This document shows positions 144 through 33,809 of a DNA stretch of 64,000 bases, in pieces. This stretch comes from Bacteroidales bacterium. Its GTDB lineage: Bacteria; Bacteroidota; Bacteroidia; Bacteroidales; UBA10428. Both the position numbers and the translations under genes were made by a program. The notes below the pieces were generated by a model. That model made no database searches and was not told where the DNA came from. It saw only the letters and a program-made list of their open reading frames with translations. Every line of letters begins with the position of its first letter. Position 1 is the stretch's first letter. Location of the stretch: NCBI GenBank assembly GCA_016928305.1, contig JAFGKY010000004.1, positions 52 to 64,051 of the forward strand. Direction: 5' to 3'.

Positions 144-203
144 TCTTAATAATTTGAATATTTAAAGATTAAGCCTACTCCGAAAAGTTTGAAATAATCC
201 ACT

Positions 204-406: not shown

Positions 407-422
407 ATTTATGTTAAAAAAA

Positions 423-1133: not shown

Positions 1134-1150
1134 TCATTTGAAGATGAGAC

Positions 1151-1571: not shown

Positions 1572-1580
1572 ATCAAATTA

Positions 1581-1997: not shown

Positions 1998-2009
1998 ATT
2001 TATTTTTAT

Positions 2010-2249
2010 TTATTGATGTTTAGTAATGATCTCTTTTATTTCTGATACAGACGGTACGCGGCCGCTAAGGGCAACTTTCTCATTGATAACCAATCCGGGC
2101 GTGTGGAGAATACCGTAACCCATAATCTTCATAATATCTTCTTCTTTTTCAATGTATGCGTCAATGCCGAGTTCAGCCACGGCATCCCTTGCCGTTTTTT
2201 CAAGCGCCTTGCATCTCGGACAACCTGTTCCTAAGATTTTTATGTTCAT
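2010..2249 (-). CDS. Small redox-active disulfide protein (MTH895/thioredoxin-like)
   Basis: IKILGTGCPRC and TPGLVINEKV motifs, 79 aa. Confidence 0.88.
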   Translation of the reverse strand: MNIKILGTGCPRCKALEKTARDAVAELGIDAYIEKEEDIMKIMGYGILHTPGLVINEKVALSGRVPSVSEIKEIITKHQ

Positions 2250-2273
2250 AAACGTAAATTTTTATGTTCGTGT

Positions 2274-2290
2274 TTCGTAAAATAACGAAC
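2274..2290. promoter_or_regulatory. Putative ArsR operator, copy 2
   Basis: TTCGTAAAATAACGAAC upstream of the thioredoxin gene. Confidence 0.6.
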
Positions 2291-2308
2291 GAAAATAGTA
2301 AAAAAATG

Positions 2309-2602
2309 TTACAAATCGAAACTGTTTTTAAAAAGTTTTTTTGCTTCCTTCCAGTTTTCTTTGTTGAGGCAATACCTGATCTTTGGTGCTTCAATTTCAC
2401 CCTGTATTAATCCGGCTTCTTTCAATTCTTTCAGGTGCTGTGAAAGGGTTGATTTGGCAATGGGAAGATCTTCAGTCAGGTCACCGCTGTAACAACAGCT
2501 TTGCCTGGAAAGCAACTCCAGCACGTAAATCCGGATAGGATGCCCCATGGCCTTGGCATAGCGGGCAATTTTCTTCTGTCTTCCGGTTATTGTTTCTTTC
2601 AT
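2309..2602 (-). CDS. arsR: ArsR/SmtB-family transcriptional repressor
   Basis: KAMGHPIR, SCCYSGDL, STLSQHLKELKEAGLI winged-HTH motifs. Confidence 0.88.
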   Translation of the reverse strand: MKETITGRQKKIARYAKAMGHPIRIYVLELLSRQSCCYSGDLTEDLPIAKSTLSQHLKELKEAGLIQGEIEAPKIRYCLNKENWKEAKKLFKNSFDL

Positions 2603-2615
2603 GGATAAGCTTATG

Positions 2616-2639
2616 TTCGTATAATATCGAACAAATTTA
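2616..2639 (-). promoter_or_regulatory. ArsR operator copy 3 abutting a Bacteroidota -7 promoter box
   Basis: TTCGTATAATATCGAAC (2616-2632) and TAAATTTG on the minus strand (2632-2639). Confidence 0.65.
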
Positions 2640-2676
2640 CAATTTTAATTTGTAACATTCAAGCCTCTTTAAGGCA

Positions 2677-4029
2677 TTAGCGGTTTGTTTCATTCCATAC
2701 TGTAATCTTTTCGTTGAATTTTATGCTATATAATTCAAGCTCATTCAGCACGGGTTCATAAATCTCTTTATGAGTAGGAATTTGGACACCGGTTAATTGG
2801 ATCTGTCCGGTCAGTAACATTTTAACGGCTATGGCCAGCGGCAGTCCTACGGTTTTTGCCATGGCCGTGTTAACTGTATCATCACCGATGGAAACCATCG
2901 AAGAAGTCAGCAGGGTAGGCTTTTTCTTGTTGGATTCCTGGTATATAAACTTATGCCACATGACCAGCATATCTTTATCTTCTGGTTCCAGCACCCATTT
3001 TTTACAGATAATCTGTTCAAGTACTTGTGCCGGAGTTGCGTCTTTCAATCCGATAACCGTATCATCAAATATGCCCAGCCATTCGATTTTTTCGCGTACA
3101 TCCGAATCCTGGTCAATATGCATGTATTGGTACAATTTTGTTTTAACCGGATCTTCAATACTGTAATACAGGAATGAGTTAATGAATTGCTTGTACGTCA
3201 TATCTTCCGTATTTCTCATCTTATAGCCGTCATCCGTGGCGCCCAGCTGAACGAACACATCCCAGGCACGGCAGTAACCCGGCCTTCGCAGAGTTCCGCG
3301 ATAAACAGTCGGAACATCCTGTAGATTGTACTTTTCAATATATTTCAGCGAATCACGGTTGGCATACCCTTCAAACTTTCCATATCCCTCTATATCAATT
3401 ACTTCGGTACGGCGAAACAGTCGGTTATAAGGAATATATTTGTATGTTCCTTCCTGGATGAAGCATGCAGGGCCCCCCTGACCGGCCAGCACAACATTTC
3501 GCGGATTCCAGGTGATCTTGTAATGCCAGGGATTGTTATCGGATTCCGGAGCGATCAGTCCGCCGGTAAAGGATTCAAAACAAAGTAATTTATGGCCCTG
3601 CTCACGGATACGGTTAATTACACGCATGGCTGACATGTGATCAATGCCCGGGTCAACACCCAGCTCATTCAGGAACAAAATACCCTGGGATTTGGCAAGA
3701 GTTGCCATTTCAGCTATTTCATTGGACTCATAAGATGCCGTAAGCATTGATTTTTTATACTTCAGGCATGCAAGTGCAACAATCGGATGAAACCTGGCCG
3801 GCAACATGGATACCACTACATCTGCAGCCTGAACTTCGTCGTGCAACTGCTGCTCGTTAAAAACATCAAAAGCAATCACCTTTGTTGATGGTGAGACTTT
3901 TTTACGTGCCGTTTCCAGGGTATGCGCACCAACCATAATTTCCCATCCGTATTTCTGAGCATTCTCTTCAAGATAGCTGATGAGTGTTGAAGAAGATCGT
4001 CCGACACCAAGGATAAGTATTTTTTTCAT
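2677..4029 (-). CDS. Saccharopine dehydrogenase (glutamate-forming, Lys9/SDH-like)
   Basis: ILILGVG Rossmann motif, ELGVDPGIDHMSAM, YKITWNP, RGTLR, AMAKTVGLP. Confidence 0.9.
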   Translation of the reverse strand: MKKILILGVGRSSSTLISYLEENAQKYGWEIMVGAHTLETARKKVSPSTKVIAFDVFNEQQLHDEVQAADVVVSMLPARFHPIVALACLKYKKSMLTASYESNEIAEMATLAKSQGILFLNELGVDPGIDHMSAMRVINRIREQGHKLLCFESFTGGLIAPESDNNPWHYKITWNPRNVVLAGQGGPACFIQEGTYKYIPYNRLFRRTEVIDIEGYGKFEGYANRDSLKYIEKYNLQDVPTVYRGTLRRPGYCRAWDVFVQLGATDDGYKMRNTEDMTYKQFINSFLYYSIEDPVKTKLYQYMHIDQDSDVREKIEWLGIFDDTVIGLKDATPAQVLEQIICKKWVLEPEDKDMLVMWHKFIYQESNKKKPTLLTSSMVSIGDDTVNTAMAKTVGLPLAIAVKMLLTGQIQLTGVQIPTHKEIYEPVLNELELYSIKFNEKITVWNETNR

Positions 4030-4138
4030 GCGAAATCAGTTATTATATTTCGAAAGGTAGAAATCGTAAGCCGGATGACCAAAGACTAAAATCAGTTTTC
4101 AAAAGTTGGTGATTGATAAAATTTTTTTTAATGATTTA

Positions 4139-5344
4139 TTACTCGTTTACCCATTCCTCCAGATATCTATATTTTTCTGTAAGTTTTCCTTCTTCTGCAA
4201 TGGTTGCCCGTGAAAGAATGTTCTCATGATCCCCATAAACCAATAGCGGGATTATGTGTTTCATGAGGTTGTTACCAAAATCCGTTGAGGCTTCAATGGG
4301 CAGACCGCATGGCAGATTATCGATAGCCATAACGGTAGTGTTCCCGGGGCGGCTGAAAGCGGATTCCGCTTTTCCTGTTAACGGATTGAAATCATAAAAC
4401 GGATCACTGAATGTGGTCGTCCTGATGGTGGAGGGCACGGATCCGTTCAGGTCACAGGTTATGTCAGCTATTGTTTTTATGTTGAAATTCCTGTCTTTCA
4501 TCTGGCTGAGCGAGAACAAAACCGGTGCTTCGGGATCCCAGTATGCCGCCATAATTAACATATCCGTTTTGTCACAAAATTGTCCAAAATGACTTTCATA
4601 CTGGGAGGGAAAAATGAAAAAATGATTCAGGTCAAAGGATTTTCCTGATTTATGCCGGTTGTATTTATCGGGACTGAGTTGAACATATACCGGCTTGTCA
4701 GGCTTAAGGTTACGGAGGTATTCCCCCACACCTGTTTTTTTTACACCAAAAGCCGTTAACATCTCTTCCGATCCGCCGGCTACCCTGCCGTCACCCGTCA
4801 GGGTAATCTTCACCGGAGGCAGTATGCAGGAGGCAGCTTGTTTCATCATATTCTCCAGTGTATGACACTCCTGTGGTGGTATCAATTCAGGCAATCCGTA
4901 CCGTTTACACAAAGCCCTGATACCGTTGTAGGCACCTACAAGTCCCGCCCACCGTCCGAATCCGATAATGCGCAGCCCACTATTGTCGATTAAGGTTTCG
5001 TAGTCCACCATCCGGATATGTTTGTCTAATATTGCTTTCAGCAAAGCCTTATTGTACTGTTGCTTTTTAATAGTGTGTGAAAAAAACAGATAGGTCTTGC
5101 CATACAAGAGATACTGTGGTTGAACTTCCTTTACACCCAGCAGTACATCACATTCATCGAGATCTTCTTTTACCCTAATCCCTTCCTGCTCATATTCCGT
5201 GTCACGAAAACATCGTACAACGCTGGGTTGCACAAATACGTGCACGTCTGGATACAGATCCTCCAGTTGCCTGCATTGTTTCGGCGTTAAGGGTACACGG
5301 TTATCCGCCGGTGTTTTGGTCTCTCTTAAAATACCAATAATCAT
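4139..5344 (-). CDS. Lysine-ketoglutarate reductase / saccharopine dehydrogenase (AlaDh/PNT fold, LKR-like)
   Basis: RVPLTP, LGVKEV, FFSHTIKKQ, DYE, FGRWAG, ADITCD, IDNLP motifs of the LKR domain. Confidence 0.82.
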   Translation of the reverse strand: MIIGILRETKTPADNRVPLTPKQCRQLEDLYPDVHVFVQPSVVRCFRDTEYEQEGIRVKEDLDECDVLLGVKEVQPQYLLYGKTYLFFSHTIKKQQYNKALLKAILDKHIRMVDYETLIDNSGLRIIGFGRWAGLVGAYNGIRALCKRYGLPELIPPQECHTLENMMKQAASCILPPVKITLTGDGRVAGGSEEMLTAFGVKKTGVGEYLRNLKPDKPVYVQLSPDKYNRHKSGKSFDLNHFFIFPSQYESHFGQFCDKTDMLIMAAYWDPEAPVLFSLSQMKDRNFNIKTIADITCDLNGSVPSTIRTTTFSDPFYDFNPLTGKAESAFSRPGNTTVMAIDNLPCGLPIEASTDFGNNLMKHIIPLLVYGDHENILSRATIAEEGKLTEKYRYLEEWVNE

Positions 5345-5359
5345 TGAAAACTATTTTAC

Positions 5360-5398
5360 ACAATCACGACAATCACAACAATCACAACAATCACAACA
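5360..5398. repeat. 9-bp tandem repeat (ACAATCACR)x4
   Basis: acaatcacg acaatcaca acaatcaca acaatcaca aca, just upstream of the LKR start. Confidence 0.9.
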
Positions 5399-5414
5399 TC
5401 CTTAACTTCACTCT

Positions 5415-6962
5415 TTACACTTCAAACTCAATCCCCTGCGCCAATGGCAATTCCGTACTGAAATTTATGGTGTTTGTCTGCCTGCGCATGTATGCTTTCC
5501 AGGCGTCGGAACCCGACTCACGTCCTCCGCCGGTATCTTTTTCACCACCGAAGGCGCCACCGATTTCAGCTCCGGAAGTTCCGATATTCACATTGGCGAT
5601 ACCACAATCGGATCCGGCATGTGAAAGAAATCGTTCGGTTTCCTGCACGTTATCTGAAAATATAGCGGATGAAAGTCCTTGCGGAACAGCATTATGTAAC
5701 TGTATAGCTTCATCCAGGTTCCGGTACCGGACCAGATAGAGCAGGGGAGCAAATGTTTCTTCCCGGACAATGGCATAATGATTCTCGACTTCGGCAATAC
5801 AGGGTACAACATAATATCCTGAAGCACATCCGGTAGGTTCATAGGATGTTCCGCCAAAGACAATTTTGCCCCCGGCTTTTCGGACCTCTTCAATGGCTTT
5901 GAAAAAATTCTCCGCCGCTTGTTTATCAATAAGCGGGCCTATATGTGTCGAAGGATCCAAAGGATTCCCGATTTTCAGGCTTGAATAGGTTTTCACCAGC
6001 AGGTTTTTGAATTCGTCAAATAACGATTCATGGATGATGATCCGTCTCGTTGTCGTGCAACGTTGCCCTGCTGTTCCAACGGCACCGAAAACGGTGGCAC
6101 GCAATGCAAGGTCTATGTTGGCATGGGGTGTTATGATGATGGCATTGTTGCCTCCGAGTTCCAGGATGGTTTTACCCAGTCGTTCTCCCACAAGCCTTCC
6201 GGCATGTTTACCGGTTTTGGTTGATCCGGTGAAAGAAATCAGGGGAATGTTTCTGTCGCTGAACAATTCATCTCCCAGGTATTTTGAGCTGGTAGCCAGC
6301 AGGTTGAGCACACCCTCGGGAACATTATTGTCGTGCAATACCCTGGAAATAATTTTATGAACTGCAACGGCACAAAGCAGTACCCTGGATGAGGGCTTCC
6401 ATAACACCACATCGCCACATACCATAGCTATCATGGCATTCCATGACCATACCGCTACCGGAAAATTAAAGGACGTAACTACTCCTACGATCCCTAACGG
6501 ATGATACTGTTCATACATGCGATGACCAGGACGTTCGGAATGCATGGTCAGCCCATAGAGCTGCCGTGAAAGCCCTACCGCAAAATCACATATATCGATC
6601 ATCTCCTGCACTTCCCCCAGTCCTTCCTGGTAAATCTTGCCCATTTCATACGTTACAAGTTTACCAAGAGGTTGCTTATACCTGCGTAGTTCCATCCCTA
6701 TCTGTCGTACAATCTCACCACGGCGTGGTGCGGGTATCATCCTCCATTTCTTAAAGGCTTCACCGGCTTTTGAAACCAGCAGGTTATAATCGGTATGGGT
6801 TCCTTGTTTTACTCCGGCGATCGGTTTACCGTCAACCGGCGATACTGAAACAAGCGTGTCGCCGGCCGTCTTAATCCATTCCGTGCCTGTGCATGCCCCT
6901 TCATTCATTTGCTGTATACCAAGCTGGTTAAGCGCTTCCTGAATGTCGTATTCGTTATTCAT
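5415..6962 (-). CDS. Alpha-aminoadipate semialdehyde dehydrogenase (ALDH7/antiquitin/AmaB-like)
   Basis: PAPRRGEIVRQIG, GEVQEMIDICDFAVGLSRQL, LELGGNNA, GTAGQRCTT, GRESGSDAWKAYMRR. Confidence 0.92.
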   Translation of the reverse strand: MNNEYDIQEALNQLGIQQMNEGACTGTEWIKTAGDTLVSVSPVDGKPIAGVKQGTHTDYNLLVSKAGEAFKKWRMIPAPRRGEIVRQIGMELRRYKQPLGKLVTYEMGKIYQEGLGEVQEMIDICDFAVGLSRQLYGLTMHSERPGHRMYEQYHPLGIVGVVTSFNFPVAVWSWNAMIAMVCGDVVLWKPSSRVLLCAVAVHKIISRVLHDNNVPEGVLNLLATSSKYLGDELFSDRNIPLISFTGSTKTGKHAGRLVGERLGKTILELGGNNAIIITPHANIDLALRATVFGAVGTAGQRCTTTRRIIIHESLFDEFKNLLVKTYSSLKIGNPLDPSTHIGPLIDKQAAENFFKAIEEVRKAGGKIVFGGTSYEPTGCASGYYVVPCIAEVENHYAIVREETFAPLLYLVRYRNLDEAIQLHNAVPQGLSSAIFSDNVQETERFLSHAGSDCGIANVNIGTSGAEIGGAFGGEKDTGGGRESGSDAWKAYMRRQTNTINFSTELPLAQGIEFEV

Positions 6963-7051
6963 AATTTACGGATTTATTTATACATTGAATTGTATATATC
7001 AATTCTATTATATTAATACCAGCACCTAACACTACCTAATACGGTTTACCA

Positions 7052-7091
7052 TTCACTTTTCATTTTTCACTGTTCACTGTTCACTGTTCAC
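7052..7091. repeat. Heptamer tandem repeat (TTCACTG/TTCACTT) overlapping the aconitase stop codon
   Basis: ttcacttttcatttttcactgttcactgttcactgttcac. Confidence 0.8.
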
Positions 7092-8859
7092 CGTTAATCC
7101 ACTTTACCAGACCTCCCTGCTCAAGGATCTGCATCAGTTTGTCAGGTAATGGACTGAAATGAAATTTCTTGTTCCCGATAGCGATGATACCGTCTGTCAT
7201 ATCTATCAAAACAGGATCACCGTTTGTGTATGCCTCAACGGCATCAGGAATAACCAATATGGGTAACCCCTGGTTAATGGCCGAACGGAAGAATATGCGG
7301 GATACCGATTTTACGAGGACAGCCCTTATACCGGCGTATACCAGACCGACTGCAGGATGTTCACGTGAACTGCCACAGCCGAAATTCTCACCGCATATCA
7401 TGATATCTCCTTTCCGGACACAGGATGAAAACTTTTCATCAAAGCCTTTCAGCAGGTGTGGTGCAATTTTTTCGGGCTGAGAGCTGCTAATCTCATAAGT
7501 CAGATTCCCGGCAAACATCTGATCAGTATTGAGGTTATCAGCATCTTTGTAGTTCCAAACTCCGTTTGTATAACGGTTTTCAGAGGCACTGACAGTTATG
7601 GTTGCCGATTGCCTTATATGATAAGGGAAAACCGATTTTTCAGCAGAAGCTGCCGGTGATGTTATTTCACCATGAATTGCAGATAATGCCACTGTAGCCG
7701 GTGATGCCAGGTATATGGACGATTTGGTATTGCCCATTCGTCCAAGAAAATTCCGGTTGGCTGTAGAAATGATATTGATACCGTCGGGGGGGATTCCCTG
7801 GCCTGTTCCCAGGCAAGGTCCACAGGAAGGTGTGAGAATATTGGCCCCTGCCAACAGGAATATTTCTGCAAGACCTTCTTTCACGGCTTGAAGGTATATC
7901 TCACGTGAAGCGGGAGTTATCAGGAGCTGTAAACCTTCTGCTACCTTCTTATCTTTCAGTATGGCAGCGGCAATTCTGAGGTCTTCGAGACGACCGTTGG
8001 TACATGTGCCGATGAGGGCCTGACTGATCTTTGTCCCTGCCACCTCATCAACACTTTTAACATTATCGACGTGGTGAGGACATGAGACCAGGGGAAACAA
8101 CAGGTCAAGATCAATTTCATATTCTTTATGATAACAGGCACCCGAATCAGCCCATACGCCTGTCGTCCTCTTTCCGAGGAATGCATGCAATGGCTCATCA
8201 GCTGGGAAGACGGCATTCTTGGCCCCCATTTCCGAAGAAAGATTGGCGATGGTCATACGGTCGGCAAGAGAGAGTGTTTTGACTCCTTCCCCGTGAAATT
8301 CAACCGACATATAATCGGCTCCGCTGGAACCGATCATACCGATGATATACAAGGCAAGGTCTTTGGCATAAACGTATTCAGGCAACCTGCCGTGCAGGGT
8401 GATTTTTATCGAATCAGGCACCCTGAACCATGTCTCCCCCTGTTTCCATAAACCAGCAGTCTCGGTCCGGTCTATTCCTGCAGCAAATGCATTAAAAGCA
8501 CCTGCAGTGCATGTGTGGCTGTCACTTCCAACTATGACCATGCCGGGGCGTGCATATTTTCCCATTAGTTGATGGCATATACCGTCTCCGGCGTCATGAA
8601 ACTTATTGATTCCCTGATTCCTGACAAAATTACGGATCTGCTGGTAATCGTTGGCCAGCTTGCTGCTGGTTGGAGGAGCATTATGATCAAGCACGATGAG
8701 CAAACGCTGAGGATCATATACCTTTATACCTCCCATTTTTTTAAAGGTACTTTCTATACTGGCTGTATTATCATGGCTTAGAACTATATCCGGCTTATGG
8801 AAGACAACGCTCCCGGCCTGTGCCCCAAATATTTTCTCTGTAAAGGTTTGTTTCGGCAT
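7081..8859 (-). CDS. Homoaconitase-like hydratase, large and small subunits fused (LeuC-LeuD/Lys4-like)
   Basis: SHDN, DH, GICHQ, DSHT, GTCTNGR, CGPCLG, NRNF and C-terminal NFGCGSSRE. Confidence 0.85.
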   Translation of the reverse strand: MPKQTFTEKIFGAQAGSVVFHKPDIVLSHDNTASIESTFKKMGGIKVYDPQRLLIVLDHNAPPTSSKLANDYQQIRNFVRNQGINKFHDAGDGICHQLMGKYARPGMVIVGSDSHTCTAGAFNAFAAGIDRTETAGLWKQGETWFRVPDSIKITLHGRLPEYVYAKDLALYIIGMIGSSGADYMSVEFHGEGVKTLSLADRMTIANLSSEMGAKNAVFPADEPLHAFLGKRTTGVWADSGACYHKEYEIDLDLLFPLVSCPHHVDNVKSVDEVAGTKISQALIGTCTNGRLEDLRIAAAILKDKKVAEGLQLLITPASREIYLQAVKEGLAEIFLLAGANILTPSCGPCLGTGQGIPPDGINIISTANRNFLGRMGNTKSSIYLASPATVALSAIHGEITSPAASAEKSVFPYHIRQSATITVSASENRYTNGVWNYKDADNLNTDQMFAGNLTYEISSSQPEKIAPHLLKGFDEKFSSCVRKGDIMICGENFGCGSSREHPAVGLVYAGIRAVLVKSVSRIFFRSAINQGLPILVIPDAVEAYTNGDPVLIDMTDGIIAIGNKKFHFSPLPDKLMQILEQGGLVKWINGEQ

Positions 8860-8960
8860 ATGCTTATCCTTGTTTGTATGATTTCAGGCATTGGAACTTA
8901 GAATCAGGAACCAAGAACCAAGAAAAAAGAACAAAGACGGTTTAAATGTTGACAGTATAC

Positions 8961-9010
8961 CGTGAACTGTTAACTGTGAACCGTGAACCGTGAACTGTTA
9001 ACCGTTAACT
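8961..9010. repeat. Heptamer tandem repeat (YGTKAAC)x7
   Basis: cgtgaac tgttaac tgtgaac cgtgaac cgtgaac tgttaac cgttaac. Confidence 0.85.
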
Positions 9011-9037
9011 ATTCAATGCTTGTCATCCTGCTAAAAT

Positions 9038-10843
9038 CTACAATAATAACAAATCTCCCTTTTGATATATCATCATCTGTACTTCTGAGAACCTGCTTAT
9101 GTTCGCAGACTTTTTGTTTTTATGATTGGTTATCGTCCCTTTTTCAAAGTCAATCGTTACCGTATCGCGATTCTTAAGATCCAGTTCACTGAGATCGGTA
9201 TAAGTCAATGCCGGAAATCCTGCATTGATAGCATTTCTTTCATAAATAGATCCGAATGATTTTGCAAGTATCGCCTGGTTACCAAGTGCCCGGAAGCAAT
9301 CCACCGCATGTTGCCGCGAACTGCCTGCTCCGAAATTCCTTCCGGTGATGATGATATCACCGGGTTCAGAACGGGAAGGATAATCTTCCCAGCCTTTCAG
9401 ATTTCCCAAAGCATATTTCCCCATTTCTTCCAGGTCGGTTACAGCAAGATGCCGGTTGTGATATATCATGTCGGTATCGATATTATCCTGCTCTATAATC
9501 CAGATCTTGCCTTCTATGATGTTTTTTTTCTTTTCCATTTGCTTAACTGCAGGTGATATGGTTTTTCTCCATTTCCCCTGAGAAGTGAAAGTTGACGGTT
9601 TTTCAGGAATATCATCCACAGTGGTAATATGTCCGGCAATAGCTGACGCAGCAGCTGTGGCAACGGATGCCAGGTACACCTCTCCCTTTCCCTGTTTGCC
9701 TTCGAAATTCCGGTTGCCGGTGCTTATGGTTTTTTCTCCCGGTCCGTTCTGTCCAATCTGTCCTGATGCACATCCGGCACATCCGGCATTACTGACAAGT
9801 GCTCCGGCTGACTTAAACACTGAGATCAATCCTTGCTGCATACAGGTATTCCATATTTCATCGGTAGAGGGAACAATTTTCAGTACCACGCCGGGGGCTA
9901 TTTTTCTGCCTTTTAAAATCATCGCCGTTTCAATCATGTCCTGCATTCTTCCGTTTGTGCAGCTGCCGATGAATACCGAGTCGATTTTCGTCCCTTTAAT
10001 ATCCATTACGGATGTCACATTGTGGGGTTGACCGGGAAGGGAAACAGCCTGTGTGAAATCCTCAAGGTTTACTTCATATTGATGCTTGTATGCAGCATCG
10101 GGATCAGCATATACAGGTTTGAAAGGCACCAGGGTTCTCGACTGGCAATAATTGATCACGGCAGGCGATGGCGGAAACAAAAGGGCAATAGCCCCCATCT
10201 CTGTGGCCATGGAAGAAATTGTTATACGTTCATCCAGGGTAAGAACTTCGGCTTCCTGACCATACAGTTCAACGGAATATCCCAGTAATCCGTCAGCCCC
10301 GAATTTTTTCAGCAGGTTGAGTACGATATCTTTAGCTGAAACAAGAGGTGGTCTCTTTCCCCTGAAGGTGATTTTTACGGAATCCGGAACCCTGAACCAT
10401 ACAGCTCCCCGTGACCAGGCAGCAGCAATATCCCGGTCACCCATACCCTGACCAAATGCCCCGATGGCTCCCACAATATTGGCGTGTGAATCGGTTGAAA
10501 CAAGCGTAGAACCCGGTACAGAAAGCCCTTCATCCATAGCCAGGTGTGTGCCGATACCGGCATTGATATCATAGACTTTTATATTATTTTCACGTGCATA
10601 CAAACGGCACTTCTGCTGGTTTGTTGCATATTGCTGATCGGATCCCGTCGGATTGCAGTCAAAAGTAAAAAAAGTCCGGCTGTTGTCATTGATCCGAAGA
10701 TTATTCTTTAGCAGGTTTTGAACTACTCCGGCCCCTCCGAAATCCCGGGCCAGTCGTACATCAATGGTCACATTCACAATCTCACCGGGCACGACTTTTT
10801 TTCTGTTGCTGTGTGATACAAGTATCTTTTCAATTATCGTCAT
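9038..10843 (-). CDS. Second fused aconitase-family (LeuC-LeuD) hydratase with a divergent active site
   Basis: DSHA, GSCTNGR, CAGC, NRNF, NFGAGSSRQ; start MTIIEKIL at 10843 preferred. Confidence 0.82.
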   Translation of the reverse strand: MTIIEKILVSHSNRKKVVPGEIVNVTIDVRLARDFGGAGVVQNLLKNNLRINDNSRTFFTFDCNPTGSDQQYATNQQKCRLYARENNIKVYDINAGIGTHLAMDEGLSVPGSTLVSTDSHANIVGAIGAFGQGMGDRDIAAAWSRGAVWFRVPDSVKITFRGKRPPLVSAKDIVLNLLKKFGADGLLGYSVELYGQEAEVLTLDERITISSMATEMGAIALLFPPSPAVINYCQSRTLVPFKPVYADPDAAYKHQYEVNLEDFTQAVSLPGQPHNVTSVMDIKGTKIDSVFIGSCTNGRMQDMIETAMILKGRKIAPGVVLKIVPSTDEIWNTCMQQGLISVFKSAGALVSNAGCAGCASGQIGQNGPGEKTISTGNRNFEGKQGKGEVYLASVATAAASAIAGHITTVDDIPEKPSTFTSQGKWRKTISPAVKQMEKKKNIIEGKIWIIEQDNIDTDMIYHNRHLAVTDLEEMGKYALGNLKGWEDYPSRSEPGDIIITGRNFGAGSSRQHAVDCFRALGNQAILAKSFGSIYERNAINAGFPALTYTDLSELDLKNRDTVTIDFEKGTITNHKNKKSANISRFSEVQMMIYQKGDLLLL

Positions 10844-10884
10844 AAGTTTAATATTATTAAAATATCTCCATCCGCTTTTCCCCA

Positions 10885-10932
10885 TTCACTGTTCCCTTTT
10901 CACTTTTCACTTTTCACTGTTCACTGTTCACT
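10885..10932. repeat. Heptamer tandem repeat (TTCACTK) overlapping the HD-protein stop codon
   Basis: ttcactgttcccttttcacttttcacttttcactgttcactgttcact. Confidence 0.8.
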
Positions 10933-11475
10933 CCTGTTCTTGAACGGCAAAAACGTCATAAAATCAGCATGGTGAACAATATAAGCCTCTGTTGACCGTT
11001 TCACCAGATCACCTTCCCCGGCATGAGCAGCAATGATATGGCATACTTCGGGTGGTATGCCGCATTGTTCGGCCAATGAAACTCCGGAAAAAGGATGTCT
11101 TATCCATTCTCCGTATTTGCCCTGCATGCATTTGCCGTTTTCATCAAGTTCATACTCAAGTAACTTTCCTACATCGCAAAGAATAGCTCCTGCAATGAGA
11201 ACATCCATGTTTACAGGCAGTTCGTCGTTAAAGAATTCGTTAAATTTCAAACCGCTTTCTCGTGCAATATGAACAACAGCTCTTTTATGGTCCATGAAGC
11301 TGACTTTCAGATCGGGACCGGCCTGTAGGGTAAAGGGAATACGTTTCAGATCCTCCGGTTTCAGTACGCTCTTCTGTAATGCCAATTCCCAGGTCTTCGC
11401 CGTTTTCTCACGAAGGCTTGAATCCTTTATCCATTCAAGCTCAGGCCACAGATCATTGATTTTGTTTGAAGACAT
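10921..11475 (-). CDS. HD/HDIG-fold protein
   Basis: H..AV, LIAGAILCDVGKLLEY, RHPFSG, IIAAH, VHHAD motifs; the HD dyad reads CD. Confidence 0.78.
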   Translation of the reverse strand: MSSNKINDLWPELEWIKDSSLREKTAKTWELALQKSVLKPEDLKRIPFTLQAGPDLKVSFMDHKRAVVHIARESGLKFNEFFNDELPVNMDVLIAGAILCDVGKLLEYELDENGKCMQGKYGEWIRHPFSGVSLAEQCGIPPEVCHIIAAHAGEGDLVKRSTEAYIVHHADFMTFLPFKNRSEQ

Positions 11476-11547
11476 ATTTTTTGGTTTAGTAGCTAGAAGT
11501 TAGTAGTTAGTAGTTTGAAGACTGTTCCACTTTTCCATTCTTGCATG

Positions 11548-12747
11548 TCACCCGTCCCTTGTCACCTTTTTAATAATCGCATCGCCCATTTCCTTCGTTG
11601 AAGCGGCTCCCTGTGTTATCACATCCGGCCCACCTTTCAGTTTCATCATATCATAGGTGCGTACTTTCCCTTCCTGAATAACCATGGCAATGGCAGCCCT
11701 GATTTTTGCCGACAAAACTTTTTCATTAAGATGATCGAGCATCATACAGGCAGATTCAATCATGGCTATCGGATTTACAATGGGTATGTCGTATCGGGCA
11801 TATTTAGGTGCTGATCCATGGGTGGGTTCAAAAACTGCTGCCTTTTCACCTATATTAGCACTGCAGGCAAATCCAAGGCCACCGATCAATCCTGCAAATC
11901 CGTCAGAGACAATATCACCGAACATGTTACCGGCTACGATCACTCCATAATCTTCCGGGTTTTTTGTCAGCCACATCATTTGTGCATCGATGTTGGTGTT
12001 CCAGAGCTCGACACCGGGATATTCCGGCTGCAGGTCCTTTGCCATTTTATACATCATTCCCGAGGTTTCCCGGATAACATTGGGTTTTTCACAAAGGGTA
12101 ACCGATCGATAACCATTTATCGACGCATGTTCAAAAGCTGCACGTAATATTCTTTCTGTGGCTTTGCGTGTGAATATCCGTGTGGAAACGGCTATTTCTT
12201 CCCTGGGTATATGGCTGAAATTCTTTTTGAAATTCGGGTGTGAATTTAACGCTTCATAAACAATGCCGTCCGGATGGCTCCACTCTACTCCGCAATACAA
12301 ACCTTCGGTATTCTGCCTGAAAATTACCACATCAATGGCAGGTTCTTCTATTTGACCTTCAGCACCCCGCCGGATAAAATTCAACGGATTTCCTTTATAA
12401 GTATGACAAGGCCGGATACAGGTATCAAGATTAAAATGCTGGCGTAAGCCTACTATGGGACTGGAATAAACATATCCTTTCCCTTTTAGTTCAGGATTGA
12501 GTTCAGCGGCAGCTTCCTGTTTTGGTTTTGATGTAATGGCTCCAAACAGGCCAACCTTATGCTGTTCAAGCAATTTTATAGTTCTCCCCGGTAAGGCATT
12601 GCCCTCTTTGCACCAGAAATCCCATCCGATATCACCTTCGGTATAATCTGCATCAAATCCTGCTGCCTCCAGTACCCTGATAGCTTCCTTCATTACCACC
12701 CGGCCGATTCCATCGCCAGGCATGGTTACAATCGTGTGTTTTGGCAT
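11548..12747 (-). CDS. Homoisocitrate-dehydrogenase-like enzyme (isocitrate/isopropylmalate dehydrogenase family)
   Basis: PGDGIG, LFGAITS, YSSPIVGLR, RQNTEGLY, NMFGDIVSD, FEPTHGSAP; start MPKH at 12747. Confidence 0.82.
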   Translation of the reverse strand: MPKHTIVTMPGDGIGRVVMKEAIRVLEAAGFDADYTEGDIGWDFWCKEGNALPGRTIKLLEQHKVGLFGAITSKPKQEAAAELNPELKGKGYVYSSPIVGLRQHFNLDTCIRPCHTYKGNPLNFIRRGAEGQIEEPAIDVVIFRQNTEGLYCGVEWSHPDGIVYEALNSHPNFKKNFSHIPREEIAVSTRIFTRKATERILRAAFEHASINGYRSVTLCEKPNVIRETSGMMYKMAKDLQPEYPGVELWNTNIDAQMMWLTKNPEDYGVIVAGNMFGDIVSDGFAGLIGGLGFACSANIGEKAAVFEPTHGSAPKYARYDIPIVNPIAMIESACMMLDHLNEKVLSAKIRAAIAMVIQEGKVRTYDMMKLKGGPDVITQGAASTKEMGDAIIKKVTRDG

Positions 12748-12773
12748 AAAAGCATATATTGAATTCCATGGCA

Positions 12774-12801
12774 GTAGAGAGGATGCATGCATCGTCTCTA
12801 C
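12774..12801. repeat. GTAG-type REP-like palindrome
   Basis: GTAGAGAGGATGCATGCATCGTCTCTAC, one mismatch from a perfect palindrome. Confidence 0.75.
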
Positions 12802-14357
12802 TATGTTTCCAACTGTCTTACAACATCAATCACTGTTCCGTCCACCCACTTAATGGCGGCTACGATTTTATCGGTAAACACGGGTTTCTGCGGTATTCCG
12901 CATATCGTTTCAGCTTCTTCTTTCAGTTGATGTATTGTTTTTACAGGTAGTCCTGATCCTTTTGTTTTATCAATAAGGTCCTTGCGCAAGGGATTTATGG
13001 CGATGCCTCTTTCGGTAATGATCACGTCAATAAGTTCTCCCGGCCCGCAAAGGGTTGTTACTTCATCCCTGATAACAGGTATTCTGTCTCTGAATAAAGG
13101 CACAGGAAGAATCACTGTTTTCCCGAACAGGCAGTTCTGCCATCCTCCCAAACCATGCAGGAGATAACCATCAGAATGGGTGACCACATTGGCATTGAAG
13201 TTTATGTCAATTTCTGTGGCACCAAGGATTACAACATCAACCATACTGGCAAAGTTACCTTTACTGTGGTAATTGTAACTGGTAAATGGACTGGTCATTA
13301 CGTGACAGGGATTATCACGGATTGATCGTACTCCTTCGAGGTCAAATGTCTGTCCGTCCAGAATATACTCCACCAGGCCTTCTTCAAGCATATTAACAAG
13401 ATATTGGTTGCTTCCTCCACGTGCAAAACGGGCTTTAATTCCCTTTTTTCGCATGATGTCACCAAAAAAAATTCCTATCGAAAGAGCTGTTCCTCCCGCG
13501 CCTGCTTGAAAAGAAAATCCGTCATGGATAATTCCGGTTACATCACAAAACCGGGCAGTCGTTTCAGCAATCAGCAGCCGGTCGGGACTGCGTGTTATCG
13601 CTGTTGTTCCGGAAACGATTTTTTCGGGAATACCCACTTTGTCAACCTTTACCGTATAGTCAACATAATTACCATGGATTTGCCATGGAATACAGGGGAA
13701 GGGAACCATGTTATCCGTTACTACTATTACCTTGTCAGCATACCGGGCATCTGCCAGGGCAAAGCCAAGCGATCCGCTGGCTGACGGGCCATGAACACCA
13801 TTGGCATTACCAAAAGAATCGGCACAGCCAGCGCCGATGACAGCTATATCGATCTTTACATCGCCATCCTGAATTGCCTGATATCGTCCGCCATGAGAAC
13901 GAAGTACGGCTGTTTTGCGCATCTTTCCTTCGGAACAATATCTTCCTAACGGACCGTTCATGCTTCCTTCGATGTGACTTATGGTACCGTCATCCAGGTA
14001 TTTTAACAGGTAGGCATGACATGAAAATGATGCTGAAGGAAACCAGCACAGATCTTTAACGCCAAGTTCACTGGCACAGTCAAATACCATATTGGCGACC
14101 CGATCACCTTCCCTGAAATGATGATGTGTGGAGATGGTCATCCCGTTATTCAGTCCGGCCTTTATAAGCGCCTCCTTTAGAGAACCGACCTGTTTGTTGC
14201 CATCCGCCGGAAAATCGATGTTGGTTGTTATCCGGGGACCATGATGGTTTCCCTTTGGGTGGTATTTCCCGACACCTGCAAAGGGCACCACCTGCTTGCC
14301 GTTTATTTTTTCAGGCACCATTCTGCCAATGGCATTTCTTATCAATTTGTCATGCAT
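12801..14357 (-). CDS. citF: Citrate lyase alpha subunit-like CoA/ACP transferase
   Basis: GMTISTHHHFREGD, RSHGGR, FSFQAGAGG, LGATEID, ERGIAINP. Confidence 0.88.
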   Translation of the reverse strand: MHDKLIRNAIGRMVPEKINGKQVVPFAGVGKYHPKGNHHGPRITTNIDFPADGNKQVGSLKEALIKAGLNNGMTISTHHHFREGDRVANMVFDCASELGVKDLCWFPSASFSCHAYLLKYLDDGTISHIEGSMNGPLGRYCSEGKMRKTAVLRSHGGRYQAIQDGDVKIDIAVIGAGCADSFGNANGVHGPSASGSLGFALADARYADKVIVVTDNMVPFPCIPWQIHGNYVDYTVKVDKVGIPEKIVSGTTAITRSPDRLLIAETTARFCDVTGIIHDGFSFQAGAGGTALSIGIFFGDIMRKKGIKARFARGGSNQYLVNMLEEGLVEYILDGQTFDLEGVRSIRDNPCHVMTSPFTSYNYHSKGNFASMVDVVILGATEIDINFNANVVTHSDGYLLHGLGGWQNCLFGKTVILPVPLFRDRIPVIRDEVTTLCGPGELIDVIITERGIAINPLRKDLIDKTKGSGLPVKTIHQLKEEAETICGIPQKPVFTDKIVAAIKWVDGTVIDVVRQLET

Positions 14358-15552
14358 GGCTGTTCCTCCAGGTTTTTGATAGTTTTCCGGCTTTTACGGC
14401 CATTTCAATGGTTCTAAGCGCCTGTTTTACTACAGGAGGATCAATCATTTTTGAATCAAGAGCGACTACACCGTATCCCTCTTTTTCTGCTTTTTCAAAG
14501 GCCAGCACTATTTTCATTGCCCTTTCGGTTTCCGCCTCTCCGGGCAGAAAACATTTGTTGATGATCGCAACCTGACGCGGGTGGATACATCCCATACCTG
14601 CAAAACCCAGCGCTTTTGATTCAAGAGCAGCCCGCTCAAGACCTGTCACATCATCGATATCGGAGAACACAGAGTCGATTGGCTGAATACCAGCTGCCCT
14701 GGCTGCATTCACTACCACGGAACGGGCGAAGAACGACTCTCTGCCCTCTGCGGTTCGCTGAGCAGCAATATCAGCGGTATAGTCTTCAAGACCGATTGCC
14801 AGTGCAACAACACTTTCTGAGGCACAGGCTATTTCATAAGCATTCATTACACCTGTCGCATTTTCGATGATAGGCATCAGGTAGATTTTGTCATTCTTGT
14901 GTCCCAGAATTTCTGATATTTTTTCTTCTGTCCGGATGACCTCTGTTTTGCATTCACATTTGGGGATAAGGATCAGATTAACAGGGTGTGGTACAACATA
15001 ATTCAGATCATCGAGCCCGGCAGGCAACGGATTTATTCTGACCATACGTTCGGCGCCATAGAAATCAACCGATCTCAAGGCATTACGGACAAGGTAACGG
15101 GCCTCAAATTTTTTATCCGGCGCAACGGAATCTTCGAGATCAAGAATAATTCCATGACACCCATAGATACCTGCATTGATCATTAGTTTTGGATTGTTAC
15201 CCGGCAGGTATAACCTTGATATGCGCTCTGTATCCTTTGCAGTGGAATATTTATTTTGCGGAAGAACCGGTAGTAAATATTCACGATCTGATTTTAAGTA
15301 TTTTTTAATTGCTGCCTCAATCCTGCCGGCCAGGGTGAAGGGCAATGCTCCGTAATCTTCGATTTCAACGTGTGCATGCTTTATACCAAAAAATTCAAGC
15401 ATCTCAGTGCACAAACCAAGAATGGATTCACCGTATAAAGCCTTAACCCTGCTTTTAAGATCAACAGACAGGCCATTATTCTCCTGTATAGTCAGACTAA
15501 TAAAACAGTCTGACCGGATATTATCTCCACGGTTGCCTGCTGTATATATCAT
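14350..15552 (-). CDS. citE: Fusion of a CitD-like acyl-carrier domain and a CitE-like acyl-CoA lyase
   Basis: N-terminal ~86 aa resemble CitD (SDC...S.V..LYG..I...D.GAL.F.L..R.EAA); then LYLPGNNP, LDLEDSVAP, GLEDYTAD, IHPRQ, MIDPPV. Confidence 0.85.
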   Translation of the reverse strand: MIYTAGNRGDNIRSDCFISLTIQENNGLSVDLKSRVKALYGESILGLCTEMLEFFGIKHAHVEIEDYGALPFTLAGRIEAAIKKYLKSDREYLLPVLPQNKYSTAKDTERISRLYLPGNNPKLMINAGIYGCHGIILDLEDSVAPDKKFEARYLVRNALRSVDFYGAERMVRINPLPAGLDDLNYVVPHPVNLILIPKCECKTEVIRTEEKISEILGHKNDKIYLMPIIENATGVMNAYEIACASESVVALAIGLEDYTADIAAQRTAEGRESFFARSVVVNAARAAGIQPIDSVFSDIDDVTGLERAALESKALGFAGMGCIHPRQVAIINKCFLPGEAETERAMKIVLAFEKAEKEGYGVVALDSKMIDPPVVKQALRTIEMAVKAGKLSKTWRNSHA

Positions 15553-15688
15553 TTGCTGAGATTATTGGACAGGAAATTACTGAAAAAAATCGTGAAAAAT
15601 GCTGATTGTTATCAGTTGCAAGATATAAAACGCTGACAGAGTATCTTCATGCTAACTTCGCATCAACAGTCTCTTTACCCGGCCACCC

Positions 15689-16927
15689 TTATAATTTTAC
15701 ATCCACCTGGTTGCGCAACAGATCTTCGAGGGTCTCACGATGCCGGATAAGGTAATCCTTACCTTCATATATCATCACCTCGGGAGGCCTTAACCGGGCA
15801 TTATAATTAGATGACATGGTATAGCAATATGCCCCTGCATTCAGAAATACCAGGTAGTCACCTTCGTGTATTTCGCTGATTTTCCGGTTCCATCCAAAGG
15901 TGTCCGTTTCACAGATGTAACCTACCACCGTATAAATCCGCGGTTTGCCTTTGGGATTGGATACGTTGAGAATCTGGTGATAGGCATCGTAAAACATAGG
16001 TCTTATTAGATGATTCAGACCGGTATCAAGACCTGCAAAAACAGTTGCCAGCGTTTGTTTAATAACGTTAACGCGGGCAAACAGGTAGCCTGCTTCACTT
16101 ACCAGGAATTTCCCCGGTTCAAAAATAAGGGTCAGGTCTTTACCATAGGTTTTGCAGAATTTTTTGAATGAGCGGGTAAGGTCTTTGCCCAGCATATCGA
16201 TATCGGTAAAATAATCGTCGGGCTTATAGGGTACTTTGAAACCACTTCCGAAATCAATATAGTCCAGTTCATGAAAGTTTTTAGCTGTTTCAAGCATTAT
16301 CTCTGTTCCGCGCAAGAATACTTCCACATCCAGGATATCAGATCCGGTATGCATATGCAGACCTTCCACTTTCATGTGATTTGCTTCCACAACCCGGAGG
16401 ACATGAGGCAGCTGATAAATTGAAATGCCGAATTTGGAATCGATATGTCCGGTAGATATCTTTGTGTTTCCCCCTGCAAGGATATGCGGATTAATGCGGA
16501 TGCAAACGGGCATTGCATTGCCGTATAGATGTCCGAACTGTTCAAGAATAGAAATATTATCAATGTTAATCTTTACTCCAAGACTTGCTCCTTCCTGAAT
16601 CTCTTCAATGGAAACGCAATTGGGTGTGAAGATTATGTCCTTCGGATTAAATCCGGCCTTCAATCCCATCTGCACTTCCTGGATAGAAACTGCATCAAGT
16701 CCTGAACCCAGATTATTGAAAAAACGCAGGATATTTATATTTCCCAAAGCTTTGCATGCAAAATTAATTTTCAGGTTAACTTCCTTGAAAGCATTCAGCA
16801 TCTTATTATATTGATACTTCATTTTAGAAGTATCGTATACGTATAACGGTGAGCCATATTTTTCGCATAAGGCTATGACATCAAGACCACCAATTTGATA
16901 TCGATTGTTTATTAGTTTCATGGACAT
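15689..16927 (-). CDS. lysA: Diaminopimelate decarboxylase
   Basis: FACKA PLP lysine, SKFG, HMHTGS, EPGKFLV, ICETD, GAYCYTMSSNYN. Confidence 0.95.
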   Translation of the reverse strand: MSMKLINNRYQIGGLDVIALCEKYGSPLYVYDTSKMKYQYNKMLNAFKEVNLKINFACKALGNINILRFFNNLGSGLDAVSIQEVQMGLKAGFNPKDIIFTPNCVSIEEIQEGASLGVKINIDNISILEQFGHLYGNAMPVCIRINPHILAGGNTKISTGHIDSKFGISIYQLPHVLRVVEANHMKVEGLHMHTGSDILDVEVFLRGTEIMLETAKNFHELDYIDFGSGFKVPYKPDDYFTDIDMLGKDLTRSFKKFCKTYGKDLTLIFEPGKFLVSEAGYLFARVNVIKQTLATVFAGLDTGLNHLIRPMFYDAYHQILNVSNPKGKPRIYTVVGYICETDTFGWNRKISEIHEGDYLVFLNAGAYCYTMSSNYNARLRPPEVMIYEGKDYLIRHRETLEDLLRNQVDVKL

Positions 16928-17083
16928 AGGTAATCAATCTTTACTGTTTTTTATATCCTGTCGTTTATCTTAATCCAATTTCGGGCAGTCCTATATTTTA
17001 TTTTCAGCCTCTATAACCCGGTTAAATTAACAGAGCAGGCCAGATCAGATTCTCAAAACTTGTCGGTAGAAAAACGGTAAACC

Positions 17084-32564: not shown

Positions 32565-33809
32565 ATGGAATATGAATCGATGAAAGGCCAGGCTATATCC
32601 ATATACAACGGTATTTTAAAAGTGCCTCATAATCCCGTAATACCTTTTATTGAAGGTGATGGAACCGGTCCTGATATATGGAATGCCTCCGTCAGGGTTT
32701 TTGATGAATCCATAAAGAAAGCATATGGAAATGACAGAAAGATAAGCTGGAAAGAAGTGCTGGCCGGAGAAAAGGCATTTCATCAAACCGGTAACTGGTT
32801 GCCCGATGAAACACTAACTGCTATCCGTGATTACCGTGTGGCCATTAAGGGACCGCTTACAACTCCCGTTGGAGGAGGTATCCGGTCAATCAACGTGGCC
32901 CTTCGTCAGCTGCTCGATCTGTATGTGTGCCTCCGCCCGGTCAGATATTACGATGGAGTTCCTTCACCTGTGAAAGATCCGTCTGCTACCGATATGGTCA
33001 TTTTCAGGGAAAATACGGAGGATATATATGCCGGCATTGAATGGATGAACGGAACACCCGGGGCTGCAAAAATTCTTACTTTTCTGCAGCAGGAAATGGG
33101 TGTGACGAAAATACGATTTCCGGAAACAACCTCGGTAGGTATTAAGCCGGTATCAAAGCAGGGTACGGAAAGGCTGGTAAGAGCAGCTATCCGCTATGCC
33201 ATCGATAAGAACCTTCCGTCGGTTACACTTGTGCATAAAGGTAATATTATGAAATTTACCGAGGGAGCTTTCCGTGACTGGGGTTATGACCTTGCCCGGT
33301 CCGAATTTGGTGCGGAAAACATTGACGGTGGACCCTGGTGTGTGATAAAAAATGCTGCATCCGGCAGCAAGATTGTTATCAAGGATGTAATTGCCGATGC
33401 ATTCCTGCAACAGATCCTTACCCGGCCTGCAGAATATTCCGTCATCGCTACACTGAATCTGAATGGTGATTATATATCCGATGCGCTGGCTGCCATCGTG
33501 GGAGGAATCGGCATAGCACCTGGCGCCAATATCAATTTTGAAACCGGACATGCTGTGTTTGAGGCAACGCATGGCACAGCACCAAAATACGCCGGAAAGG
33601 ATATGGTGAATCCGGGTTCTTTGATTCTTTCAGGTGTTATGATGCTCGAATACATAGGATGGGTTGAGGCAGCTCTCCTGATCGTACAAGGCTTGCAGGC
33701 ATCCATCAAAGCCAAACGTGTTACATACGATTTTGAAAGACAAATGACAGGGGCAATAAAATTGAAATGCTCCGAATTTGCCGATGAAATCATACGGAAT
33801 ATGAAGTAA
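32565..33809 (+). CDS. icd: NADP-dependent isocitrate dehydrogenase
   Basis: [54 protein letters not shown]. Confidence 0.96.

Follow-up and report, generated by a model that had tools for sequence, protein, structure and literature searches.

Nine co-directional genes lie on the minus strand of a 64,000-nt stretch of Bacteroidales DNA (contig JAFGKY010000004.1; this whole stretch is referred to as the window), spanning positions 15552 to 2677, and are considered here as a candidate pathway of lysine degradation. A check of the open reading frames (ORFs) in the window found all nine on that strand, in the order and at the positions that an earlier first-pass annotation had given (Table 1). 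Spacing within the cluster ranges from an 8-nt overlap, between the genes for a CitD–CitE fusion protein and for CitF, to a gap of 178 nt, and another of the intergenic spaces measures 118 nt. Searches of Pfam and NCBIfam profiles with curated cut-offs assigned the nine proteins to families. Three of them, LKR-like, SDH-like and ALDH7-type, make up a saccharopine half; the CitD–CitE fusion, CitF, an Iso_dh-family dehydrogenase, an HD protein and two fused hydro-lyases (Acn2 and Acn1) make up a six-gene module. The first-pass labels "HICDH-like" (homoisocitrate dehydrogenase-like) and "aconitase" hold at the family level only.

Table 1. Features of the window discussed in the text, with the cluster genes listed from upstream to downstream.
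Feature	Coordinates	Strand	Profile matches and remarks
CitD–CitE fusion (400 aa)	14350..15552	-	PF06857 2e-13; PF03328 6.9e-50
CitF (518 aa)	12801..14357	-	PF04223 1.7e-137; TIGR01584 509.7 bits (cut-off 501.45)
Iso_dh-family dehydrogenase (414 aa)	11548..12792	-	PF00180 4.3e-78
HD protein (184 aa)	10921..11475	-	PF01966 2.5e-09; TIGR00277 (HDIG)
Acn2, fused hydro-lyase (615 aa)	9038..10885	-	PF00330 + PF00694; PRK00402 405.6 bits (cut-off 385)
Acn1, fused hydro-lyase (592 aa)	7081..8859	-	Aconitase + Aconitase_C; hacA_fam TIGR01343 475.8 bits (cut-off 385.7)
ALDH7-type L-piperidine-6-carboxylate dehydrogenase (515 aa)	5415..6962	-	NF050084 790.9 bits (cut-off 730)
LKR-like (401 aa)	4139..5344	-	AlaDh_PNT_N PF05222 1.8e-18
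SDH-like (450 aa)	2677..4029	-	Sacchrp_dh_C PF16653 2.4e-73; Sacchrp_dh_NADP PF03435
LysA paralogue, diaminopimelate decarboxylase	15689..16927	-	above TIGR01048 cut-off
Housekeeping NADP-isocitrate dehydrogenase (Icd)	32565..33809	+	NF005425 728.8 bits
7-nt repeat array	7031..7105	+	TTCACTG/TTCACTT
7-nt repeat array	8956..9002	+	TTCACTG/TTCACTT
7-nt repeat array	10864..10945	+	TTCACTG/TTCACTT

The two halves of the cluster occur together across genomes. We drew 120 genomes from the window's order, Bacteroidales, taking one from each family, and grouped them by the presence of an Acn2 orthologue (at least 56% identity), which was found in 50 of the 120. Orthologue thresholds were set by eye on bimodal score lists, and fragmentary matches of high identity (e.g. 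in G048, G100 and G024) were counted as present. CitF orthologues (at least 64% identity; 54/120 genomes in total) and orthologues of the dehydrogenase were each present in 50/50 Acn2-positive and 4/70 Acn2-negative genomes, and a second, Acn1-type match was present in 48 of the 50. The SDH family was found in 50/50 and the LKR family in 49/50 Acn2-positive genomes, compared with 26/70 each in the Acn2-negative group; the sole LKR miss was a genome only 63% complete. Among 81 Cloacimonadota genomes, all 20 that carry an Acn2 homologue have LKR, compared with 1/61 of the rest. On these counts the module is carried by roughly four of every ten sampled Bacteroidales families and by one quarter of the sampled Cloacimonadota. 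It is almost never found without LKR/SDH, and LKR/SDH are often found without it, as would be expected of a module acting downstream of the saccharopine steps. In the closed or nearly closed genomes G106 and G057 the module genes are spread around the chromosome, so the pattern is not that of one mobile island. None of these genes is present in G007, a genome of the window's own genus.

Gene neighbourhoods were compared by scanning for Acn2 in one genome per species and taking the best 80 of 560 relatives as loci, a sample biased to close relatives of Acn2; genes were scored by tblastn matches with E ≤ 1e-10 over 50% or more of the query, and ORFs were grouped into families at ≥35% identity over ≥60% of the longer protein. 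All nine genes are present in the same order in 7 of the 80 loci (L003, L004, L006, L007, L009, L010 and L011), among them that of the cultured Carboxylicivirga caseinilyticus (L010), and four others (L001, L002, L005 and L008) keep this order until the contig ends. One locus carries the full set minus LKR only (L029) and one the six-gene module plus ALDH7 (L073). In four Cloacimonadota loci (L012, L015, L023 and L049), divergent SDH-like (35–38% identity) and LKR-like (29–35%) genes lie directly upstream of citDE-citF-dehydrogenase-HD-Acn2-Acn1; in two more from that phylum (L021 and L025), an LKR-like gene alone (28–32%) precedes the module, with a contig edge in L021. The module stands by itself in L014, L016, L026 and L027. 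Over all 80 loci, 21 have CitF beside the module, 34 the dehydrogenase and 36 the HD gene, and in 52 Acn1 adjoins Acn2; an AraC-family regulator precedes the Acn2–Acn1 pair inside an unrelated syntenic block in about 16 Rikenellaceae-like loci. Relatives of Acn2 were found in records titled Bacteroidales, Cloacimonadota, Delongbacteria, Aminicenantes, Neomarinimicrobiota, Anaerolineaceae and Chlorobi. The first-pass annotation had joined the two halves in one system, and their co-conservation gives this strong backing, with 49–50/50 genomes in Bacteroidales, 20/20 in Cloacimonadota and shared clusters in both phyla. It is quite likely that the saccharopine genes and the six-gene module form one functional unit.

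For the saccharopine half, domain architecture and the closest solved structures place the two non-ALDH proteins in the LKR/Lys1 and SDH/Lys9 types. The LKR-like protein is nearest to the LKR domain of human AASS (2.9e-38, versus 3e-10 for yeast Lys1), and the SDH-like protein is nearest to the SDH domain of AASS (7.4e-64) and to fungal saccharopine reductases (1e-59, and 5.6e-55 for Lys9). The ALDH7-type protein passes the L-piperidine-6-carboxylate dehydrogenase equivalog; an oxidative enzyme does occupy the place of the ATP-dependent biosynthetic reductase in this cluster, as had been proposed. ALDH7 orthologues (at least 61% identity) were found in 33 of the 120 Bacteroidales genomes, 22/50 Acn2-positive and 11/70 Acn2-negative, and all 33 also carry an LKR homologue. 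A division of SDH (49–57% versus 34–39%) and LKR (41–49% versus 31–37%) identity classes into catabolic and biosynthetic types was tried and rejected on account of mixed pairings. The neighbours of the LKR/SDH pair in G057 and G080 include no reductase and no transaminase.

In the fusion protein at the head of the cluster, a CitD-like acyl-carrier domain (residues ~1–90) precedes a CitE-like C–C lyase domain (~110–390). Ser-14 within the motif "RSDC", which we take to be the canonical serine for prosthetic-group attachment, is invariant in 20/20 fusion orthologues, and the carrier domain is therefore evidently under selection. Its score on the CitD equivalog TIGR01608 was 48.4 bits against a cut-off of 63.5; CitF narrowly passed its own equivalog. 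The public names of at least 120 homologue clusters (≥65% identity) read only "citrate lyase subunit beta/citryl-CoA lyase". The citF gene of the module type is duplicated in tandem in two Bacteroidales (G057:C5:56706-59944 and G106:C1:1689160-1692437) and in one member of the Cloacimonadales (L021:2579-5826).

Both hydro-lyases consist of a LeuC/HacA-like large domain fused to a LeuD/HacB-like small domain and are 34% identical to each other. Their profile scores place both in the hacA/LeuC–LeuD subfamily, Acn1 through hacA_fam and Acn2 through PRK00402; Acn2 reached 371.1 bits on TIGR01343, which is below the cut-off. In fungi and Thermus the interconversion of homocitrate and homoisocitrate takes two aconitase-family enzymes, according to an excerpt of PMC3556520, and the presence of two hydro-lyase paralogues in the cluster fits this need. 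An excerpt of PMC7308503 has the specificity-loop region of the small subunit deciding substrate preference. This loop reads "YLRT" in the methanogen homoaconitase (2pkp), "YLVY" in an isopropylmalate/citramalate isomerase (3vba) and "YNLT" in the Pyrococcus enzyme (1v7l). In Acn2 it reads "HLAV", within a pattern HN[RKQS][YH][LI][ATS][IVT]T kept in 80 orthologues, and in Acn1 it has a 3-residue insertion and serines and no arginine, features kept in 45 orthologues. A second Cloacimonadota subgroup (G147, G155, G166, G179, G181, G188, G191 and G204) carries an unfused homologue of the Acn2 large subunit, in ORFs of ~350–430 aa with ~50% identity, together with a more divergent LKR (44–48%).

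The best NCBIfam models for the cluster dehydrogenase are those of methanogen homoisocitrate dehydrogenases, AksF2 (268.5 bits, cut-off 540) and AksF (253.6, cut-off 500), and its nearest solved structures are an NAD-isocitrate dehydrogenase (3.9e-51) and the Thermus homoisocitrate dehydrogenase (2.6e-49). The window's genome (4.8 Mb in 173 contigs, 93.75% complete) carries a housekeeping Icd 20 kb from the cluster dehydrogenase, a mitochondrial-type aconitase (1133.6 bits) and a complete leuA-leuC-leuD-cimA-leuB operon; the cluster dehydrogenase and hydro-lyases are thus extra paralogues, which points to another job for them. In E. coli Icd, a serine and an asparagine of the substrate loop bind the distal carboxylate of isocitrate. 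The genome's own Icd has "RSINVALRQ" in this loop and the cluster dehydrogenase has "SSPIVGLRQ", with isoleucine in place of the asparagine; "SPIV" is present in all 8 loop variants listed from 33 aligned orthologues, and the loop is also unlike that of the genome's LeuB. The loss of the asparagine mildly disfavours isocitrate as the substrate.

The gene for the HD protein adjoins that for the dehydrogenase in the loci that carry it. The protein is well conserved, with a mean column identity of 72% in an alignment of 32 sequences. Of these orthologues, 30/32 have Ala, Cys, Ser or Ile where the HD dyad would have its histidine ("A[IL]LxDVGK"); the divergent members in L031 and L026 retain "LLHDVGK". 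The remaining His and Asp residues that resemble metal ligands are invariant in the alignment. An AlphaFold2 model of the protein (predicted local-distance difference test score, 90.3) retrieved only generic HD folds in Foldseek, with YhaM the best at E 4.7e-4, and its Atlas matches were limited to "metal dependent phosphohydrolase" clusters. In one Cloacimonadota cluster an IS200-like (Y1_Tnp) transposase gene (L012:9153-9794) sits between the HD gene and Acn2.

We give a rough probability of 0.5 to the reading that the products of the cluster together degrade lysine to glutamate and acetate in a single catabolic route, which passes from 2-oxoadipate to 2-oxoglutarate. LKR would join lysine and 2-oxoglutarate into saccharopine, SDH would split saccharopine into glutamate and 2-aminoadipate semialdehyde, and ALDH7 (in genomes that lack it, some other aldehyde dehydrogenase) would convert the semialdehyde to 2-aminoadipate; the families of these three enzymes are established and their activities predicted. 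An unlinked transaminase is presumed to yield 2-oxoadipate. From there on, families, clustering and co-occurrence suggest the following steps. The Iso_dh-family enzyme, working in reverse, would form homoisocitrate from 2-oxoadipate, CO2 and NAD(P)H, and Acn1 and Acn2 would each catalyse one half-reaction in the conversion of homoisocitrate via cis-homoaconitate to homocitrate. By the mechanism known for citrate lyase, CitF would then exchange the homocitryl group onto the carrier thiol with release of acetate, and the CitE domain would cleave homocitryl-carrier to 2-oxoglutarate and acetyl-carrier. The direction of flux is presumed, as is a modification of the carrier serine that operates without CitG and CitX. 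The net reaction would be lysine + 2-oxoglutarate + CO2 + H2O -> 2 glutamate + acetate, which is redox-neutral. The balance given in the first-pass annotation was right in carbon, nitrogen and redox; one H2O had to be added to it, upon which C, H, N, O and electrons close arithmetically.

The gene content of the cluster and the genome is consistent with this direction. No homocitrate synthase, aminoadipate reductase or LysW machinery was found in the cluster or the 80 related loci, LysW itself not having been searched for, so the claim that steps exclusive to biosynthesis are missing from the cluster agrees with the family calls. LeuA-family genes were seen in the genome only within its leu operon. 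Known exits from 2-oxoadipate are not evident in the window's genome: HglS (PF07063), an O2-dependent decarboxylating oxygenase, gave no match, and the only acyl-CoA dehydrogenase domain lies in a 628-aa ORF; 2-oxoacid:ferredoxin oxidoreductases were not examined. The genome is predicted to make lysine through the diaminopimelate route. It has a gene for DapL (LL-diaminopimelate aminotransferase) next to a second LysA (G000:C144, L083:1931-3187), which is 37% identical to the LysA paralogue in the window; both pass TIGR01048. Two LysA copies are also present in the same-genus genome G007.

Several observations weigh against the proposed route. The dehydrogenase falls far short of every curated equivalog cut-off, those of the homoisocitrate dehydrogenase models included, with 124.8 bits on the iso_homocit_dh model where 680 are required. 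The CitE domain is likewise far below its equivalog (TIGR01588, 263.8 bits against 443.4). The genes for prosthetic-group synthesis and activation of citrate lyase, CitG, CitX and CitC, have no match in the window's genome at its 93.75% completeness, and CitG and CitX were found in 0/5 further near-complete module genomes, hence in none of six. As a control, CitG was found in 5/5 genomes from the same sample of the order that carry a second, classical-type CitF (41–43% identity), and it adjoins that gene in two of them. The same results also set the cluster lyase apart from classical citrate lyase as a subfamily of its own, which counts in favour of the route. Neither Acn1 nor Acn2, nor any of their 45 and 80 orthologues, has the arginine found in the loop of the methanogen homoaconitase, and "HLAV" of Acn2 looks closer to the "YLVY" of the isopropylmalate/citramalate isomerase. 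An excerpt of PMC7308503 also has a Thermus homoaconitase subunit replaceable by the Pyrococcus small subunit; since the latter lacks the arginine and can stand in, loss of this residue is compatible with homoaconitate as a substrate, and the loops offer clues to substrate that are weak and mixed. ALDH7 is present in 22/50 and not found in 28/50 module genomes, nor in any of the 4 Cloacimonadota genomes examined, which means that another aldehyde dehydrogenase must be assumed there. A gene for a 2-aminoadipate transaminase was found neither in the cluster nor among the recurrent neighbours in the related loci. A true LysA, scoring above the TIGR01048 cut-off, is missing from 30/50 module genomes, from 21 of the 28 module genomes that lack ALDH7 and from 4/4 Cloacimonadota. 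Finally, the genomes compared are related, and Fisher values overstate the significance of the co-occurrence. Taken as a whole, the reading of the first-pass annotation is partly supported.

The best-placed alternative, which we nonetheless regard as unlikely, is that the six-gene module shortens or cleaves a different acid and is linked to LKR/SDH only indirectly, for example through the disposal of glutamate or 2-oxoglutarate turned over by LKR and SDH. Candidates are 2-oxoglutarate, processed via isocitrate and citrate to acetate and oxaloacetate; 2-oxobutyrate, processed via methylmalate and citramalate to acetate and pyruvate; and a longer 2-oxo-dicarboxylate. The resemblance of the Acn2 loop to that of isopropylmalate/citramalate isomerase, the lack of the arginine in both paralogues, the margin of only 8 bits by which CitF clears the citrate-lyase alpha cut-off and the 28/50 genomes with the module and no ALDH7 would all suit such a function, and citramalate lyase is a homologue of citrate lyase. 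However, the genome already possesses a housekeeping Icd, an aconitase and LeuBCD/CimA, and the loop of the cluster dehydrogenase lacks the asparagine of the genome's own Icd. An indirect link also does not predict that LKR/SDH accompany the module in 49–50/50 and 20/20 genomes and share a gene cluster with it in two phyla. Nor does any catabolic gene for threonine, methionine or glutamate recur beside the module in the related loci.

The missing LysA genes leave room for a biosynthetic role in some lineages. In lysine biosynthesis of the alpha-aminoadipate type, the lyase would serve as homocitrate synthase and LKR and SDH, whose families include Lys1 and Lys9, would act in the Lys1 and Lys9 direction, at least where LysA is absent. 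We judge this improbable. The histidine biosynthesis gene hisD was found in 15/50 module genomes compared with 40/70 others, and 26 of the 30 LysA-less module genomes also lack it (the exceptions being G009, G015, G057 and G075), so that the loss of LysA looks like general auxotrophy; none of the 5 Cloacimonadota/Delongbacteria module genomes has hisD. A Lys2-type thioester reductase was not found above cut-off in 5 module genomes. Further arguments against biosynthesis are that the window's own genome has DapL and two copies of LysA, that the ALDH7 in its cluster is oxidative, and that citrate-lyase chemistry without thioester hydrolysis thermodynamically favours cleavage at millimolar concentrations. 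The module appears to mark amino-acid-dependent organisms, which fits catabolism, and biosynthetic use is possible in a few lineages. A ~450-aa pyridoxal phosphate-dependent decarboxylase, common where LysA is missing, was considered as a substitute for LysA and rejected, as it scores best on an FslC-like model (235.7 bits, cut-off 500) and several genomes have it alongside a true LysA. This decarboxylase is widespread in the order (G083 and ~40 other genomes) and scores ~185–240 bits on the LysA model, below the cut-off; the FslC-like model is that of an N-citrylornithine decarboxylase, and the copy in G083 (L084:1168-3620) lies beside an ATP-grasp gene.

That two unrelated operons, one for saccharopine and one for tricarboxylate metabolism, came to lie side by side by chance or recent rearrangement is highly improbable, for although the genes are scattered over several contigs in most genomes and the 118- and 178-nt gaps could hold promoters, the halves co-occur in 49–50/50 and 20/20 genomes of two phyla and are joined in two distinct arrangements, with LKR/SDH downstream of the module in Bacteroidales and upstream of it in Cloacimonadota. 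A scan for terminators and promoters gave counts equal to those of shuffled sequences and no intergenic terminator on the coding strand; the sigma-70 consensus it used is unfit for Bacteroidota.

The proposed lysine route can be set beside four known systems. One employs a related sequence of reactions for another purpose: in the reductive tricarboxylic acid (TCA) cycle, an Iso_dh enzyme carries out reductive carboxylation, an aconitase-type enzyme isomerises the product, and cleavage yields a C2 unit and a 2-oxo acid. The module would follow the same three-step logic, with acids that are one CH2 longer; it differs in acting on homo-acids, in an ATP-independent lyase that would give acetate, and in serving catabolic chain shortening rather than CO2 fixation. 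Classical citrate lyase of enterobacteria and lactic acid bacteria (CitDEF with CitC, CitG and CitX) shares with the cluster the CitF, CitE and CitD homologues and the carrier serine, but in the cluster the carrier is fused to the beta subunit and both CitE and CitD are below their cut-offs. In Pseudomonas putida, HglS is said to have been shown by Thompson et al. in 2019 to take 2-oxoadipate via D-2-hydroxyglutarate to 2-oxoglutarate. That route likewise brings lysine-derived 2-oxoadipate to 2-oxoglutarate without glutaryl-CoA, whereas the cluster's route would add CO2 and release acetate. The upper half of the alpha-aminoadipate pathway of fungi and Thermus has the intermediates proposed here, the same enzyme superfamilies and two aconitase-family proteins. 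In the cluster the proposed direction is the reverse, the place of the LeuA-type homocitrate synthase is taken by a carrier system of the citrate-lyase type, the hydro-lyases combine large and small domains in one chain, and no equivalog model is passed.

The saccharopine half has its own counterpart. An excerpt of PMC7253579 describes the saccharopine pathway of lysine catabolism (AASS plus ALDH7A1/AASADH) in animals, plants and some bacteria. The cluster has all three of its enzyme families, with the same logical order of steps. It differs in that LKR and SDH are separate proteins and in that no genes for 2-oxoadipate or glutaryl-CoA dehydrogenase follow; the lyase, hydro-lyase and dehydrogenase module stands in their place.

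A "homocitrate lyase" or a route of this kind was not found in a full-text literature search, in which subscription papers and supplements (gene tables of metagenome-assembled genomes) were outside the scope; to that extent the first-pass remark of knowing no description of this route still stands. Somewhat more tentatively, at a little under even odds, we propose that the clusters represent a widespread undescribed anaerobic pathway for lysine, with a CitG/CitX-independent "homocitrate lyase" and with the HD protein of altered metal dyad as a component. Such a pathway would add to the handful of known lysine degradation routes one that is redox-neutral, independent of O2 and CO2-consuming and that needs no glutaryl-CoA dehydrogenase. 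It would explain how lysine enters the glutamate pool in Bacteroidales and Cloacimonadota that are abundant in sediments and digesters as uncultured, amino-acid-dependent anaerobes. Functions would also be assigned to thousands of genes that currently carry the labels citrate lyase, aconitase/isopropylmalate isomerase or isocitrate dehydrogenase; these labels distort metabolic reconstructions from metagenomes, for instance through false calls of the TCA cycle, leucine biosynthesis or "partial AAA (alpha-aminoadipate) lysine biosynthesis". More generally, 2-oxoacid elongation modules would be able to run backwards as chain-shortening modules, and an enzyme of the citrate-lyase type would work without the CitG/CitX prosthetic-group system. 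Because Carboxylicivirga caseinilyticus is in culture and carries the full cluster, the hypothesis is directly testable.

Two neighbouring genes and a repeat family complete the description of the locus. The window's lysA paralogue is co-oriented with the cluster and located 136 nt upstream of it. Its membership in the operon was considered and rejected, because the adjacency is seen only in the window and in 0/80 related loci. The downstream neighbour encodes an ArsR-family regulator and does not recur in related loci. Arrays of a 7-nt repeat occupy three intergenic spaces of the cluster (Table 1), one of them inverted, with 10 matches in the window against 0 expected. Compared with positions 1–20000 of the window, the study's one metatranscriptome and the sequencing run that is the probable source matched only in pieces of ~30–40 nt, at this heptamer repeat. 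The genome contains 75 arrays on 42 contigs, which identifies the repeat as a dispersed REP-like element that is not specific to the cluster. L001 and L007 also contain it, and it has matches in many abundant sediment-metagenome contigs.

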